Shown: positions 7,162 through 45,369 of the stretch, piece by piece
Layout: each line of letters starts with the position of its first letter
How positions within the stretch are numbered: the first letter of the stretch is position 1
Source of the DNA: an uncultured Oscillospiraceae bacterium
GTDB lineage: Bacteria; Bacillota; Clostridia; Oscillospirales; Acutalibacteraceae
Reading direction: 5' to 3'
NCBI GenBank assembly: GCA_900549755.1
Contig: URPQ01000001.1
Span: forward strand, 13,947 to 77,946
Length of the DNA stretch: 64,000 nt
Translations under genes and position numbers: made by a program
The notes under the pieces: model-generated
What the model saw: the letters and a program-made list of their open reading frames with translations, nothing else
Told to the model about the DNA's origin: nothing
Databases searched by the model: none

Positions 7162-7440
7162 TTACATATCGCAATTAAACTCTATTTCTTCTTCCTCTGC
7201 CGCCTCTTTAAAGGTTTCGATTATTTTCAAAACATTTTCCTTTAAATTTTCTGCCGCCTTGGTTTCAGGCTTAAATATCACAGTTATACTGACAGGCGTT
7301 TCTATAAAACCTGTCAGCATATCCCATAAAGCGCTTAAATTGTTGCCGTACCATTCGGGCAGTTTCAACTTTTCTTTCATTTCATTATGTAAATCCATAG
7401 GATATTTGCATAATGAAAAATCCACAACAATATTTTTCAT
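7162..7440 (-). CDS. barstar-family ribonuclease inhibitor (orphan; no adjacent barnase)
   Basis: LPEWYGNNLSALWDMLTGFIETP closely parallels the barstar core [23 protein letters not shown]; 92 aa, acidic C-terminus. Confidence 0.8.
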   Translation of the reverse strand: MKNIVVDFSLCKYPMDLHNEMKEKLKLPEWYGNNLSALWDMLTGFIETPVSITVIFKPETKAAENLKENVLKIIETFKEAAEEEEIEFNCDM

Positions 7441-8336: not shown

Positions 8337-8639
8337 TTAAAAAACACCCTTTCGGGTGCTTGACAAATTTGAAAACTATAATATAGGTGAAATGAAAAAT
8401 CGCCTCCATTGTCCTAAATGGAGCCGGATCATACTCCGGTTCACGCTGCGCCTGCCTAATATAAAAGAGAAACACAGCCGGAATATAAACTGTGTTCCTC
8501 TTTTTTTAAAAGGCGTCCTGAACCTTTAATTCTATTATAATACAAAATTTCAATTTGTTAAGTAGAATTATAAGATTTTTTGGAATATTTTGGAGTTATT
8601 TCTGCATTATGCTATATGAGCATAAAATCAGGTGAATTT

Positions 8640-8860
8640 TAAACCCAAACAAACCCTATTATTACCCGGTGCTTGCCGTGATACTATTGCCCTGCCGCCC
8701 TTTGGTGAAGGCTGCTCCCCACAGTATGGAAAGATAACTATTTTGTCTCCCTCTGAAGAGGGTGCATGTGTCCGGTGGACACCTTTGCCAAAGCAGAAGC
8801 ACCGACCGAGGCGGCAGCCGAGACGGTAGATTTGCCATAGGCAAAGACGAAGGGGTTGTT
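8640..8860. other. GC-rich, highly structured non-coding element of unknown class and strand (candidate ncRNA)
   Basis: GC-rich patch inside an AT-rich intergenic region. Several perfect local hairpins (ccctc-tgaa-gaggg, gtgtcc-ggt-ggacac, ttgcc-ata-ggcaa) and a long-range ggtgctt/aagcacc pairing enclose about 150 nt. Overlapping ORFs have no RBS. Confidence 0.25.
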
Positions 8861-8865
8861 AGAAA

Positions 8866-8894
8866 CCATACGGTACTTTGAAACAAAAATTGGG
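8866..8894 (-). terminator. intrinsic terminator after the rSAM-SPASM gene
   Basis: Minus-strand hairpin ggata-N9-tatcc followed by CAATTTTTGTTT immediately after the stop at 8913. Confidence 0.4.
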
Positions 8895-8912
8895 ATATTT
8901 CCACCCTATCCG

Positions 8913-10241
8913 CTACTTTAAATTTTCAATCTCGAATAATATTTTCTCACGGACATTTTGTATTTTTTGCATTTTACGCTCCTCAGTGCAACTATAGCCA
9001 TCATAATCAGGACATCTTTCAAGATGAATACATTCAGGGTATAGCGGGCATGTTTGACAAATTTCATCACGTGCGCTTAAAGCCTTCCATACAGTAATAT
9101 TTTCTTTTTTAATATTAGAATCATAAATATTTCCCCAGTAGCCACTATCCAAACAATGGTCGCATTTACCAAGGTTGCCATCGGGTAATATTGTAGTACT
9201 TGAATTCGCATCAGCCAGACAGGAATAATATTTAAATGTTCTTCTTAATTTCTTTTTAGAGTTTAAGCCGTAATTCCTAATTTTATCTTCCAACTCAGTA
9301 AGTTTATTCGTGAGTTCCTCTATTTCTGATTCATTTCTTTTTTTTGCTTTTCGAGAATCATATAAAAGAAATACATAAACACTTAAAAGAGATTTATTAT
9401 CTGCAAATTCGGTATTGAGGTAATCTATCAGTTCGGATAAATCATTCTTATTATGTTCATCAAGATTTAAGCGTATAGAGACCTTGATTCCTGCTGATAA
9501 TAACAATTTTATGTTTCTAATCACACGTTCAAACGGATTGGGATCCTCATGTATATAATTCTTAATTCGATTATATACCCTTTCCGTACCGTCCAGTGTG
9601 ATTTGTACCTTATACAAATTCCAATTATTTCTCGCTTTATCTATTAAATCTTGATCAAATAAATACCCGTTTGAAATCATCCATGACTTATATACAGCAT
9701 TATTTGCTTTTAAAAAATTAAATATTGTATCAATAGCAGCTATGTTACACAGTGGCTCACCACCGAATAATTGAATTGTGATATCGTGACCCTTTGATTT
9801 ATCTATCATAAAACGGGCAACATCAACTGCTGTGTCATTGGACATTATTTTCTTTTGAGCTTGCCTTTCAAAGCAATAAAAACATCTGGCATTACAATCT
9901 GTTGTCGGAAAGACAATAAAATTGTTTATATAATTTTGTCGCATAATCAATGAATACAAATTATAAATTTGCTCATAAAACTTTATATCATTAAATTTTT
10001 CCGGTACAAGAATCCAATTTTTAATTAAAAAGTCATATGTTTCTCTGTGTTTAGTTAAATTATTGTATTCATCTTTATCAAGTAAAACCATTTGACGTGT
10101 TAAGCTATTAAAAAGAACAATACTATCCCCTACCTCAGAAACAATTATAAATTGTATAAGTCGAAATTTTTCTTCATTCAAAATTCTTTGTTCTGATAAT
10201 AAGGCGTATATTTCCGGTGGAATTTTACAAATCTCTTTCAC
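8913..10241 (-). CDS. radical SAM / SPASM-domain peptide-modifying enzyme (RiPP maturase-like; sactisynthase/ranthipeptide/QhpD-like class) with about 100-aa N-terminal extension
   Basis: CNARCFYC (CxxxCxxC) rSAM cluster motif. Cys-rich C-terminus (CDHC...CQTCPLYPECIHLERCPDYDGYSC) typical of SPASM twin auxiliary clusters. GTG start with GGAG RBS. Very AT-rich compared with neighbours. Confidence 0.85.
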   Translation of the reverse strand: MKEICKIPPEIYALLSEQRILNEEKFRLIQFIIVSEVGDSIVLFNSLTRQMVLLDKDEYNNLTKHRETYDFLIKNWILVPEKFNDIKFYEQIYNLYSLIMRQNYINNFIVFPTTDCNARCFYCFERQAQKKIMSNDTAVDVARFMIDKSKGHDITIQLFGGEPLCNIAAIDTIFNFLKANNAVYKSWMISNGYLFDQDLIDKARNNWNLYKVQITLDGTERVYNRIKNYIHEDPNPFERVIRNIKLLLSAGIKVSIRLNLDEHNKNDLSELIDYLNTEFADNKSLLSVYVFLLYDSRKAKKRNESEIEELTNKLTELEDKIRNYGLNSKKKLRRTFKYYSCLADANSSTTILPDGNLGKCDHCLDSGYWGNIYDSNIKKENITVWKALSARDEICQTCPLYPECIHLERCPDYDGYSCTEERKMQKIQNVREKILFEIENLK

Positions 10242-10261
10242 TTACATAAACTCCATTATTG

Positions 10262-10297
10262 TTAATTAAAAGCGGTCACTCTTAAGTGACCGCTTTT
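10262..10297 (-). terminator. intrinsic terminator/attenuator between precursor peptide ORF and maturase
   Basis: Minus strand reads AAAAGCGGTCACT-TAAGA-GTGACCGCTTTT then AATTAAC; 13-bp perfect stem plus U-run. Confidence 0.6.
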
Positions 10298-10310
10298 AAA
10301 TTGAACTTTA

Positions 10311-10409
10311 GTCTAAATCGCCTTCAACTTCGCATGTGTACGATGTAGCAACCACATCATTGCAATTCAAATCAACGATATCAACATATGCCTTTTCAAA
10401 TTTCATTAT
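10311..10409 (-). CDS. unannotated 32-aa putative RiPP precursor peptide MKFEKAYVDIVDLNCNDVVATSYTCEVEGDLD
   Basis: Small ORF below the track threshold with a strong RBS (AGGTGGTGA, 6 nt spacer, ATG). It sits 70 nt upstream of the rSAM-SPASM start and is separated from it by an attenuator. Two Cys in an Asp/Glu-rich sequence. Confidence 0.55.
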
Positions 10410-10439
10410 TCTCACCACCTATATTATAATGAAAACATA

Positions 10440-10796
10440 TTAAGAAAAGCGAACAACAGCAGCATCACCATACGCAATCATTGCTGTATAGAAATCAGTA
10501 TATTTTGTTTCAGTAGGATGCTTGGCAATTTGTCCAGCAGCATACGATTCTATAGAATAGGTTCTTGTTACTGAAATTTGTTCATCACCATTATAAAGTG
10601 CAATTGTAAGGGCAGATGAAAGTTCTGTAGACTTTAAATCTCTGCAATACGCATAATAATAACCATTTGCCTTTAACTCAAAGTTAGAGCCGTTATATAC
10701 CAATTCTTTTGAACCATACGAAATAACAAATTTTAAATTGTTAATATCATAGCTAGCAACATCCGCTGATTTAACCGCGCAAACCAATTCTATCAT
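10440..10796 (-). pseudogene. C-terminal segment (118 aa from a putative Met) apparently split by a frameshift from the upstream cohesin-like gene
   Basis: No RBS before the putative ATG. Its frame stays open upstream through the last about 30 codons of the 10820..11968 gene, which suggests one gene split by a 1-nt indel near 10800-10880. Confidence 0.4.
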
Positions 10797-10819
10797 GTCG
10801 GTGCAATTAACAGTATTGC

Positions 10820-11968
10820 TTATAGAAATCCCGGTGCCAGCCTTGTTATCAATTGAAACTGGTGTTCTGGGGTTGCAGTAGCATACTCAGCAATATAAGC
10901 AGCTACACTTTCATATTCATTAACTAAAGCATCCAGTCTGTAGCCACTTCCAAAGAACTTCTGAGCCTCTGCGCCATAATTCAAGACACGAGCAAGGAGA
11001 GTTTTTTGAGCTACAGATGCACTTGTCTTAGTAAACTGACTTGCACAATAATTCAGCACACAAGTAGTGTATGCATTTGAAGACACGTAAATCTCATTAT
11101 TATCAGCATCTACACCGTGGACCTTAAACTCAATTTTATCGCCATACTGACGTGCGTCAAAGCCTTTGAATACAAATCTGTATCTTTTTGCTCCACCTAA
11201 TGTTACCGGAGTCATAGATTCAACATTAACTTTGTCTTCTACATATTTTAAAGTACCGTTGGAATAATCCTCTTTCTTTGCAGAAAGGTACAAATTAGAG
11301 CAGGATGCCCACTGTTCATTATAAAGAACATAAACATTTATGCTAAGTGTGCTTTCAAATGATACAGATTGGTTAAATTTTGCTTCTAATTCAACCGGCG
11401 CAACTGTATTCTTAACAACTACATTAGAATTTCTAAAATCAATGGTGTTTACCCAAGCCTCGCCCTGATCAGCAGCAGTAGCAGTAACATTAACCGCATA
11501 ATTACCATCGGCAGTACCATCAGCTATTTTAACGCTGAAAGTAAGCGTGAGCGAAGGAGTATGCTCATCATATGTATTATCGGATTTAACAAAGTTAAGA
11601 ATATTAACATCTGCAACAGTAGTTACACCTGTGTTTGTGTCAATGCTCTTTTTGAACTGGAAGTTTTCGCCTTCGGCAACATCAGTATCAAATTTGACCG
11701 GCTTACCACGTGTAACATCATACATAGATACAACCGTAAGTTCCTTAGCAAATGTGAACTTAACATGGTGTGCACAAATGCCTTCAATGTTTTGCAGCTT
11801 AGCGGTTACGGTTACGGTTTCGCCCGCTTTGCCTTCTGCTCCTACCATTTCATAAATGGGGGTGGTTGTCTCGTCTGCGGCTGATACGGTCAGGCAACCT
11901 ACGAGTGCGGTTAAGCAAAGGGCTGCCGAAAGTACAAGCGCAAGAGACTTTTTGAAAATCTTTTCCAT
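10820..11968 (-). CDS. secreted/lipoprotein with cohesin-like domain (cell-surface scaffold-like protein); likely continues into 10440..10796 after frameshift
   Basis: Signal peptide with LVGC lipobox or SAA-DE signal-peptidase I site. AGETVTVTAKLQNIEGICAHHVKFTF...YDV...ADGNYAVNVTATAAD resembles type-I cohesin beta-sandwich signatures. The true start is the ATG at 11968 (AGGAGAAAAG RBS), not the upstream-extended track start. Confidence 0.5.
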   Translation of the reverse strand: MEKIFKKSLALVLSAALCLTALVGCLTVSAADETTTPIYEMVGAEGKAGETVTVTAKLQNIEGICAHHVKFTFAKELTVVSMYDVTRGKPVKFDTDVAEGENFQFKKSIDTNTGVTTVADVNILNFVKSDNTYDEHTPSLTLTFSVKIADGTADGNYAVNVTATAADQGEAWVNTIDFRNSNVVVKNTVAPVELEAKFNQSVSFESTLSINVYVLYNEQWASCSNLYLSAKKEDYSNGTLKYVEDKVNVESMTPVTLGGAKRYRFVFKGFDARQYGDKIEFKVHGVDADNNEIYVSSNAYTTCVLNYCASQFTKTSASVAQKTLLARVLNYGAEAQKFFGSGYRLDALVNEYESVAAYIAEYATATPEHQFQLITRLAPGFL

Positions 11969-12357
11969 ATCTTTTCTCCTAACCGGCTTTCGCCATAAAT
12001 ATTTATACGCCGCCTTTCGGCGCCGCTTACCGCAAGCGGCAATGCCACGTTCAGCCACTAACGGTTTTCTTCATTTTATCATTAAAATAAATCTTTGTCA
12101 AGTCTTTAGGAGGTTAATAACCGGTCTGCGGCGGCTAAATATTCCGCCTTGTTTTTGTGCAAATAGACAAATGGCACTACCGGTTGTTTAATATGTTTTA
12201 TAATATGTATAAGGAGCACAAAATATCGTAGGCTGACGAGAACTGAAAAGCCCGAAACGAATATTCTTGTCTCTTTGTATACAATTATATATTTGCTACA
12301 ATAAAAAGCCAAGCATTTTTCATCGTCATTTTTCACCAACATTTGGCAATTCAGACG

Positions 12358-13068: not shown

Positions 13069-14352
<1,284 letters not shown>

Positions 14353-14471: not shown

Positions 14472-14548
14472 GCGCTGATAGCTCAGCTGGATAGAGCGTC
14501 TGGCTACGGACCAGAAGGTCGGGAGTTCGAATCTTCTTCAGCGCGCCA
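14472..14548 (+). tRNA. tRNA-Arg (anticodon ACG)
   Basis: Cloverleaf: acceptor GCGCUGA/UCAGCGC, D-arm GCUC-AGCUGGAUA-GAGC, anticodon stem UCUGG/CCAGA with loop CUACGGA, T-loop UUCGAAU, encoded CCA. The T-stem has two G-U wobbles. Confidence 0.85.
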
Positions 14549-34764: not shown

Positions 34765-34821
34765 AGAAAATAAAAAAGCTGCACCTATAACGGAATTTAA
34801 AAATTCCATATAAGTGCAGCC
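34765..34821 (-). terminator. intrinsic terminator inside the 5' leader (riboswitch expression platform)
   Basis: Minus strand: GGCTGCAC-N30 (with internal ggaatttttaaattcc palindrome)-GTGCAGC then TTTTTTATTTT, just upstream of the RBS/ATG. Confidence 0.55.
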
Positions 34822-34896
34822 TGACAATCATAGCATAAAAGCCTTAGATTCATAGCTTTGCGTCACACGCTTTCGCGTGTTTTGCCTTTTAACTGT
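34822..34896 (-). promoter_or_regulatory. candidate c-di-GMP-I (GEMM) riboswitch aptamer
   Basis: Minus-strand RNA reads AAAAGGCAAAAC-ACGC-GAAA-GCGU-GU-GACGCAAAGC. This parallels the Vc2 element GGGCAAACC-AUUC-GAAA-GAGU-GG-GACGCAAAGCC element for element: GCAAA bulge, GNRA-capped 4-bp stem, GACGCAAAGC. It is followed by CUAAG/UAUG receptor-like elements and then the terminator. Confidence 0.55.
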
Positions 34897-45022: not shown

Positions 45023-45369
45023 TGGTGGAGACGATGGGAATCGAACCCATGTCCAAAAATCAATCCATACCGGCATCTCCGAGCGCAGACGTTTATTTAC
45101 ATTCCCTTACGCAGACGTCAGACGTCAGACTTCCGCGCTTGGTAGCTCCAAAGCCGTGACAGGGGCAGGAGCGCGCCCCTGTTCACGTTCACCGCTAAAA
45201 TGACACCCTTGCCGGGTCGCGGTGTTCCCGGGTCGGATGAGCAGCCTAAATTAGGCTGCTAAAGCAACTTTATTGTTGTCAGTTAATTTTGTTTGCGGAT
45301 TTTATAGCGGTTCCGCACCGCTGCTCGCTTCCGATACTTCAAAATCCCTGTCGAAACCTTTACGCCCCC
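45023..45369 (-). ncRNA. ssrA: tmRNA (ssrA)
   Basis: 5' GGGGGCGUAAAGGUUUCGACAGGGAUU tRNA-like start and 3' end GGGUUCGAUUCCCAUCGUCUCCACCA. Internal tag frame GAC AAC AAU AAA GUU GCU UUA GCA GCC UAA gives (A)DNNKVALAA. Terminator hairpin downstream; -10 box directly upstream. Confidence 0.85.

Follow-up and report, generated by a model that had tools for sequence, protein, structure and literature searches.

The stretch examined here, 64,000 nucleotides of contig URPQ01000001.1 (assembly GCA_900549755.1, forward-strand positions 13,947 to 77,946) from an uncultured Oscillospiraceae bacterium, is called the window throughout, and positions are counted within it. Its minus strand carries a small open reading frame (ORF) followed by a gene for a radical S-adenosylmethionine (SAM) enzyme with a SPASM-type C-terminal region, and it is likely that the two are a genuine precursor–maturase pair in a functional, reduced cassette for a peptide that is made on ribosomes and modified after translation (RiPP). 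The cassette is an allele of a polymorphic locus, co-inherited with the C-terminal modules of the upstream gene, here called c2, and swapped between near-identical strains. Both the link to this upstream gene, which encodes a cohesin-like protein, and the allelic nature of the cassette had been missed in the original prediction, which was made from the letters of the window.

The precursor peptide and its family

The small ORF runs from 10406 to 10308 on the minus strand, encodes MKFEKAYVDIVDLNCNDVVATSYTCEVEGDLD in an intact frame of 32 codons and lies 33 nt after c2 and 66 nt before the enzyme gene, thus close upstream of the latter as originally proposed, if not at the proposed 70 nt. Its standing as a real gene is borne out by a profile of homologous upstream ORFs, which it matches with E = 8.5e-12 and which finds no second precursor copy in the 64 kb of the window. 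Its ribosome-binding site had been ranked among the best of the window, and rightly: the Shine-Dalgarno sequence (AGGTGGTGA / AGGTGGTGAG, 10411-10420, minus strand) forms a duplex of -11.7 kcal/mol with the 3' end of the 16S rRNA, which places it 12th among the 1424 ATGs of the window.

Alignment to the family leader assigns residues 1-22 (MKFEKAYVDIVDLNCNDVVATS, 10341-10406, minus strand) to a leader of the pattern (KK)F/YE.P..E(V/I)(V/I).(F/L)…D(V/I)(V/I)T(T/A)S, which is followed by a variable core. Since the conserved Ser column (Ser22) sets the boundary, the predicted core starts at residue 23 and comprises residues 23-32, YTCEVEGDLD (10308-10340 on the minus strand with the stop codon). 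Two cysteines had first been counted in this core; in the family alignment Cys15 falls in a variable column of the leader, and the core is left with a single one, Cys25, in the context C-x-x-E (C-E-V-E).

Relatives of the enzyme are numerous, with 3697 proteins at E<=1e-10, none of them named. A scan of one genome per species gave at least 534 enzyme loci, 80 of which were fetched for analysis (loci are cited below by L numbers); these come from Oscillospiraceae, Acutalibacteraceae, Ruminococcus, Lachnospiraceae, Prevotella and other Bacteroidales, Atopobiaceae and Erysipelotrichales-type metagenome-assembled genomes of gut and rumen. Members of both families, precursor and enzyme, are found together in Bacillota, Bacteroidota and Actinomycetota. 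A comparison of neighbourhoods had been proposed as a check on whether homologous enzymes are accompanied by such an ORF, and they are: the profile (E<1e-3) finds 64 homologous small ORFs in 58 of 81 loci, and 43 of the 64 lie at most 300 nt upstream of the enzyme on the same strand. This recurrence beside the enzyme, together with the family profile match, rules out that the small ORF is a chance one. The leader is kept between phyla and the cores vary. The closest cassette, L001, has an enzyme 45% identical to that of the window and a near-identical core, EGEYTCPTEGDLD.

The precursor–enzyme family is large and uncurated and, to judge from the searches made, undescribed. No NCBIfam model matches any of seven precursors even at E<=10, and no description of the family was found in literature searches on the leader string, ranthipeptides in Bacteroidetes, SynChlorMet, and cohesin with radical SAM. 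A metagenome scan with a single protein returned three same-species contigs only. The 'BGC8' enzyme of P. gulae (PMC10352776) was considered as a member of the same family and rejected, as it differs by its CTLNCKYC motif and its GG leader.

The radical SAM/SPASM enzyme

The enzyme ORF (442 aa; 10241 to 8913, minus strand), taken from the ORF list and supported by profile matches and an AlphaFold2 model, begins with a GTG that is preceded by GGAG 9 nt upstream (10251-10254). A four-codon mini-ORF, ATG GAG TTT ATG TAA (10242-10256, minus strand), includes this GGAG and ends directly before the GTG; it possibly serves translational coupling to the radical SAM gene, or it is a coincidence.

The CxxxCxxC motif by which the enzyme was first recognized is C116-N-A-R-C120-F-Y-C123 (9873-9896, minus strand). 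It is invariant in a 33-sequence family alignment, and Pfam Radical_SAM (PF04055) scores 58.3 bits against a gathering cut-off of 29.5, which places the enzyme among radical SAM proteins. The Cys-rich C-terminus, likewise anticipated, is a SPASM-type auxiliary-cluster region, C341-x13-G355-x4-C360 … C395-x2-C398-x5-C404-x5-C410-x7-C418 (8988-9221, minus strand), in which the same alignment shows no variation at C341, C395, C398, C404, C410 and C418 and a conservation of at least 90% at C360; it follows the 7-8 Cys SPASM pattern for two auxiliary 4Fe-4S clusters, CX9-15GX4C … CX2CX5CX3C … C with one spacing of x5 instead of x3. Pfam reports Radical_SAM and Fer4_12 only on the enzyme, with no SPASM-domain model. 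The C-terminal region aligns with SPASM maturase profiles up to residue 433 and also with the SPASM region of CteB.

The top NCBIfam matches of the enzyme are all RiPP maturases, namely TIGR04463 ('very short Cys-rich', 126 bits), CefB (119), Clo7bot (97) and PapB (73). In a profile search against PDB sequences CteB is best (E = 2e-20), followed by TigE and SkfB, and Foldseek with the AlphaFold2 model (predicted local distance difference test, pLDDT, of 90.9) puts CteB, TigE, SuiB and SkfB ahead of anaerobic sulfatase-maturating enzymes (anSME), with CteB, TigE and SuiB aligned near full length. The presence of anSME structures among the fold matches (E ~1e-10, template modelling (TM) score ~0.55) is what one would expect if the protein were a sulfatase-maturating or other non-RiPP SPASM enzyme with a small ORF beside it by chance. 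We find this hardly credible, as RiPP maturases score better by sequence and by structure, no sulfatase gene lies nearby and the small-ORF family accompanies the enzyme in the majority of loci given above. The sulfatase-maturase identity, against which the original prediction had asked for a profile check, was rejected on the same grounds, and anSME is absent among the 25 listed NCBIfam matches.

Residues 1-105 form an N-terminal domain (9927-10241, minus strand) that, in the AlphaFold2 model, is a candidate leader-binding domain resembling a RiPP recognition element (RRE), with pLDDT of ~93-97 and strands at residues 32-37, 40-45 and 50-55 followed by helices. An N-terminal extension long enough for an RRE had been proposed; its length holds up, with ~105 residues before the radical SAM core, and the RRE itself, which is not detected by sequence, is plausible from the modelled fold.

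Core composition and predicted chemistry

In the cores of the family Gly and Cys account for 13% each, Asp for 11% and Glu for 10%, and Lys, Arg and His together for only 2%. Cysteine is found in 61 of 63 enzyme-linked cores and in none of the five cores from cassettes that have the same leader family and lack the radical SAM gene (L084, L086, L087, L089 and L090; Fisher p = 2e-6). Thus, Cys in the core tracks with the presence of the enzyme, which ties the enzyme to Cys. In addition, Asp is enriched at Cys+3 (30 of 134, p = 1.5e-4; Asp and Glu together 35% against a background of 21%), an enrichment that is modest and drawn from sequences that are not phylogenetically independent; the position is acidic both in the window (C-E-V-E) and in L001 (C-P-T-E).

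The chemistry is probably formation of a Cys thioether at CxxD/E, with PapB as the best analogy. Thioethers of a Cys sulfur define sactipeptides where they go to the alpha carbon of the acceptor residue, and ranthipeptides where they go to its beta or gamma carbon. PapB forms Cys-Asp(beta)/Glu(gamma) thioethers in CXnD/E motifs (PMC9413430). The PapB/freyrasin system and the window share an acidic, Cys-bearing core, an enrichment of Asp or Glu at a fixed offset and an expected thioether of -2 Da to the beta or gamma carbon of an acidic residue; they differ in the offset, CX3D in the former and CxxD/E here, and in the single Cys of the window core. The PapB family model NF047865 gives 72.8 bits on the enzyme against a cut-off of 340, with a match that starts at residue 108, so that the enzyme falls outside that family. 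Nearly full-length alignments are obtained with TIGR04463, CefB (Cys-every-fifth) and Clo7bot, the closest curated enzyme families, which by name partner short Cys-rich peptides and which, to our knowledge, are themselves uncharacterised.

Another point of comparison is CteB/thermocellin (SCIFF; PDB 5WGG, 5WHY), which also combines a radical SAM/SPASM enzyme of ~450 aa, an N-terminal domain and an adjacent short Cys-containing precursor. CteB differs in being only ~15% identical to the window enzyme, which scores 51 bits with TIGR03974 against a cut-off of 425, and the SCIFF precursor has six Cys in 45 residues, whereas the window family has 1-4 Cys in an acidic core, another leader and another neighbourhood. 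TIGR03973, the SCIFF precursor model, gives no match to the window precursor even at E<=10. By these two models the pair lies outside the SCIFF/ranthipeptide class in the sense of antiSMASH, whose rule for ranthipeptides, as quoted in PMC13289728, rests on the SCIFF precursor model.

Some of the evidence counts against a thioether specifically. The Cys correlation shows a Cys-directed chemistry and not specifically a thioether; the modification is predicted from the genes; and the choice of Glu28 as the acceptor residue is a guess. The structural neighbours CteB, TigE, SuiB, SkfB and anSME span different chemistries (TigE makes cyclopropylglycine, SuiB a C-C crosslink, and anSME oxidizes Cys), no characterised homologue is close, the nearest being only ~16% identical, and there are single-Cys cores without an acidic residue at +3, such as CATP in L072 and CITH in L002. 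All of this leaves some room for a genuine pair with another chemistry, be it a sactionine (S-C-alpha) link to another residue, anSME-like oxidation of Cys or, at another place in the core, epimerisation or a C-C link. We judge this a lesser possibility, somewhat unlikely, in view of the dominance of Cys, Gly, Asp and Glu in the cores, the Asp/Glu enrichment at Cys+3 and the fact that the nearest curated families all partner Cys-rich peptides. As for a C-C link, maturases that form it act on aromatics, which are rare in the cores and represented in that of the window by Tyr23 only.

The hairpin between precursor and enzyme

The spacer holds a hairpin whose 14-bp stem is perfect and whose loop has 4 nt, followed by a short U tract (UAAAAGCGGUCACU-UAAG-AGUGACCGCUUUUA, 10298 to 10267, minus strand), predicted by folding at ~-20 kcal/mol on its own; relative to shuffled sequences, the fold of the 106-nt spacer region has a z of -4.5. 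What had been described as a perfect 13-bp intrinsic terminator is indeed a perfect stem, of 14 bp, but its U tract is short: behind the 9-bp GC core there is only UUUU-AAUU, and the hairpin therefore looks like a weak, partial terminator. A scan for consensus terminators made no call here because the A/U flanks pair into the stem, and an Rfam search of the hairpin region returned chance-level matches only. Spacer hairpins with dG <= -18 kcal/mol are found in 24 of 41 loci as against 1 of 82 shuffled spacers. Their sequence is not conserved outside one Prevotella group, and the layout of precursor, hairpin and enzyme recurs regardless.

Between the hairpin and the enzyme's GTG start lie just 25 nt, too few to accommodate a promoter, and as the enzyme is under purifying selection some read-through past the hairpin must occur, in support of an attenuator. 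The hairpin looks like a partial intrinsic terminator or attenuator; given the short U tract, it could instead be an RNA stabiliser or processing site.

A strain-variable cassette

As delimited by blastn and GC content, the strain-variable cassette spans 8815-11390 (minus strand) and takes in c2's C-terminal two thirds together with precursor, hairpin and radical SAM gene, at a GC content of ~30-37% against ~45-50% around it. In a blastn comparison with L084 the window aligns at 99% down to 11391 and at 96% from 8814 on, with no alignment between. In L084 the radical SAM gene is missing from the replacement block, which encodes another C-terminus for c2 and, next to it, a leader-type peptide free of Cys as well as a small P-loop protein. 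The chromosomal site is shared, with the order enolase–DUF436–[cassette]–polysaccharide deacetylase–barstar–pyrH, and in genomes that are otherwise 96-99% identical it is occupied by further alleles in L086 (c2, a Gly-rich peptide, a ScmC-like protein, PqqD and an acetyltransferase), L088 and L089. Between these alleles the cohesin part at the N-terminus of c2 shares 91-99% identity. As for the C-terminal part in the window allele, resemblance is confined to the c2 of L001 (45%), which also has the closest enzyme and peptide. Within the allele, neither precursor nor hairpin differs between the two assemblies in which they are covered.

The small P-loop protein found after a Cys-free leader-type peptide (L084:7888-8391 and L089:4789-5301) has 167-170 aa and a weak nSTAND3 match (E = 0.003) as its sole Pfam match. 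Downstream of the radical SAM gene lies an ORF-poor region of ~575 nt (8337-8912), where Rfam gives no match at its gathering threshold. The cassette boundary, 8814/8815, falls inside this region beside a weak terminator-like site (8816-8800, minus strand), and the sequence below 8815 is 96% conserved in L084. At 7162-7440 (minus strand) a barstar-family ORF, assigned by PF01337 from its L084 orthologue, sits in a patch of 34% GC with no obvious barnase gene beside it. Elsewhere in the window, Rfam at gathering threshold reports a c-di-GMP-I riboswitch (34812-34896, minus strand, 75 bits), a tmRNA (45023-45369, minus strand, 159 bits) and a tRNA (14472-14545, plus strand).

The upstream gene c2 and its 5' untranslated region

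c2 codes for a secreted protein with a strikingly conserved signal peptide; its other parts are a cohesin-fold domain and two modules of the beta-sandwich/helical-hairpin type. According to the ORF list and the AlphaFold2 model, the signal peptide MEKIFKKSLALVLSAALCLTALVGCLTVSA, the cohesin-fold domain and the first module are encoded at 10820-11968 (minus strand), with the start at the ATG at 11968 and not at the listed GTG at 12058. The C-terminal part lies at 10440-10796 (minus strand), in the frame that continues after a frameshift, and is contiguous with the N-terminal part in L081 and L082. The Pfam Cohesin match is weak; the AlphaFold2 model (pLDDT 86) matches type I cohesins with a TM score of ~0.7. 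A C-terminal motif, YS.E…YG.AA..F, is common to the c2 proteins upstream of precursors in 21 loci.

The signal peptide (11879-11968, minus strand) is identical among c2 proteins that are otherwise 25-50% identical, an identity that is inflated by the word-based prefilter of the homologue search, and its DNA is 93-98% conserved in L025, L027, L087 and L090. This may reflect a dedicated SipW-like S24/S26 peptidase, or recombination at that end of the gene.

A promoter-like site, TTGACA-17-TAAAAT with an upstream TG (12073-12101, minus strand), is the best match in a promoter scan (11/12) and is likely the promoter of a c2–precursor–radical SAM operon; the same -35 and extended -10 elements stand upstream of c2 in L025, L027, L087 and L090. 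It is followed by a structured 5' untranslated region (UTR) of ~100 nt (11969-12066, minus strand; z = -2.9) with a 5' hairpin ACCG…CGGU, a GC-rich hairpin and a GGC-GAAA-GCC mini-hairpin that abuts the Shine-Dalgarno sequence GGTTAGGAG. The exact motif GCCGGTTAGGAG is found just before the c2 start codon in 16 loci, and conservation of the 5' UTR upstream of c2 extends to L003, L025, L027, L055, L072, L077, L085, L087 and L090. Compensatory changes in the 5' stem (ACCG/CGGU, ACCA/UGGU, CCGC/GCGG and CCAC/GUGG) were identified by eye only, the MAFFT alignment of these UTRs being poor in its 5' half. Rfam matches to the leader are at chance level only, and the region is a candidate for an undescribed cis-regulatory or stabilising leader.

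Fuller and reduced cassettes

In many relatives a longer gene order is found, consisting of c2 (in these relatives a secreted protein of 500-900 aa), the precursor, the radical SAM gene, a ScmC/HprK-like P-loop protein, PqqD and a S24/S26 signal-peptidase-like protein, sometimes trailed by an ATP-binding cassette (ABC) transporter. The module had been described as compact, a view that needs correction: what the window has is the reduced version of a larger, modular system and not a self-contained design. The accompanying remark that no protease or transporter is adjacent is correct for the window and does not extend to the family, as many relatives carry the peptidase, PqqD and ScmC-like genes. 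The reduced layout is a common one, with 18 of 44 fully flanked loci lacking ScmC, PqqD and S24 genes.

The fuller clusters consist of the same parts as the SynChlorMet (Scm) cassette, that is a small peptide, a radical SAM/SPASM enzyme, a ScmC/HprK-like P-loop protein, PqqD and a peptidase. They differ from it in that their ScmC match is weak (23-28 bits against 125), they occur in other taxa and they add the cohesin-like protein; the window copy moreover is without ScmC, PqqD and peptidase.

PqqD and the ScmC-like protein stay paired in cassettes that have no radical SAM gene (L086, L087 and L090), and PqqD therefore probably serves the ScmC-like protein rather than the radical SAM enzyme. 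These cassettes (L086:6763-8902, L087:5017-6616 and L090:3496-4654) contain c2, PqqD, a ScmC/HprK-like protein and a Gly/acid-rich peptide that is free of Cys and has a leader of the same type, those of L086 and L087 also carrying a GNAT fusion or a 153-aa protein; they look like a separate, undescribed peptide-tailoring route on the same scaffold. Tandem arrays are a further variation, with two or three paralogous radical SAM genes in L008, L015, L023, L037, L052, L069, L074 and L079, some of them with two or three precursor copies.

Weighing a functional cassette against a remnant

Beyond the chemistry, several observations weigh against a working precursor–maturase pair in the window. The enzyme remains far below every curated NCBIfam cut-off (525 bits for TIGR04463, 600 for CefB, 600 for Clo7bot and 340 for PapB), which leaves it outside the first three families as well. 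Its N-terminal domain has no match to the PqqD/RRE model PF05402 in Pfam, and hhalign against the cassette-associated PqqD family gives a probability of 1%. The 64 kb of the window hold no ScmC-like, PqqD, S24 peptidase or dedicated ABC transporter gene; the sole PqqD-labelled match falls inside the radical SAM gene, and ABC matches look like generic ATPase similarity. Finally, the c2 frame is broken at a run of four C (~10870-10873, minus strand) where L081 has five, leaving ORFs of 412 and 118 aa. The remark that the product class is not assignable and may be new agrees with the scores below all cut-offs and with the precursors that no NCBIfam model matches.

The missing accessory genes and the 1-nt deletion in c2, together with the occurrence of other cassettes, some without the enzyme, at this locus in near-identical strains, might be taken to mean that the cassette is a decaying remnant that has lost its ScmC-like, PqqD and peptidase genes and yields no mature product. 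This we consider distinctly unlikely. Neither the enzyme ORF nor the precursor ORF is broken, every residue that is invariant in the family is retained, independent assemblies of the allele differ in the enzyme mostly at synonymous sites (7 against 2 nonsynonymous), and the allele is common, with 82 member sequences in the 90%-identity cluster of the enzyme and 107 in the protein cluster that the intact form of c2 matches. Enzyme-only layouts, moreover, make up the 18 of 44 loci noted above. In particular, the C4/C5 difference is absent from two independent, 99.5%-identical assemblies, in which c2 is intact (509/539 aa in L081/P0121; the frame is intact in L082 too), so that an error of assembly may be behind the frameshift, which could otherwise be a mutation or phase variation.

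Proposed mechanism

For a functional cassette, the following course of events can be proposed. One promoter and the structured 5' UTR upstream of c2 would drive c2, the precursor and the enzyme. The strong Shine-Dalgarno sequence and ATG would give abundant peptide, and the leaky hairpin would pass part of the transcripts to the GTG-started enzyme gene, so that substrate would exceed enzyme. The enzyme would bind the leader via its own N-terminal domain; a separate PqqD would be unneeded, because PqqD goes with the ScmC-like protein in the cassettes without the enzyme. Chemistry of the 5'-deoxyadenosyl radical would then bond the thiol of Cys25 to a carbon atom in a residue close by, for a change of -2 Da, Glu28 of the C-x-x-E motif being the most likely acceptor, to form a small ring of the ranthipeptide type. 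A peptidase whose gene lies elsewhere would probably cleave off the leader behind the small-residue motif A-T-S22.

Implications for the family

Gut anaerobes provide new chemistry, antibiotics and signals in the form of radical SAM-modified peptides, and the present family is notable for its size, with its 534 or more loci in species-representative genomes from three phyla. The window copy is a very small test case, with one enzyme and a 10-residue core that contains one Cys, and its chemistry is directly testable. At the same time, the modular cassettes represent a natural experiment in which one and the same leader is found in cassettes that have the enzyme and in others that do not, and before cores that contain Cys or lack it.

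The exchange of c2 C-terminal modules, peptide and tailoring enzymes as one block, in which the tailoring set varies (a radical SAM enzyme; a ScmC-like protein and PqqD with a peptidase or acetyltransferase; a small P-loop protein), raises the idea that the peptide is not a free bacteriocin and would be a small partner of the cohesin-bearing c2, in a pherotype-like or QhpC-like surface pairing in gut Clostridia under a conserved 5' leader RNA. We put this forward as an unlikely reading. QhpD is a radical SAM/SPASM enzyme that makes Cys-to-Asp/Glu thioethers in a small polypeptide that works bound to larger subunits, and QhpD/QhpC thus offers an analogy for a peptide that possibly acts with c2; the window differs in a TIGR03906 score of 43 bits against 453, in having no dehydrogenase genes and in a peptide of 32 aa as compared with ~80-110. 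As regards polymorphism only, the cassette resembles the agr and ComC pherotype loci, where a hypervariable block comprises the peptide gene and parts of its partner proteins, with recombination breakpoints inside a gene and conserved flanks; unlike these, it has no histidine kinase and no AgrB-like protease, and a signalling role is speculative. The tight linkage of the peptide to a polymorphic cohesin-fold secreted protein hints at strain-specific surface biology over simple antibiosis.

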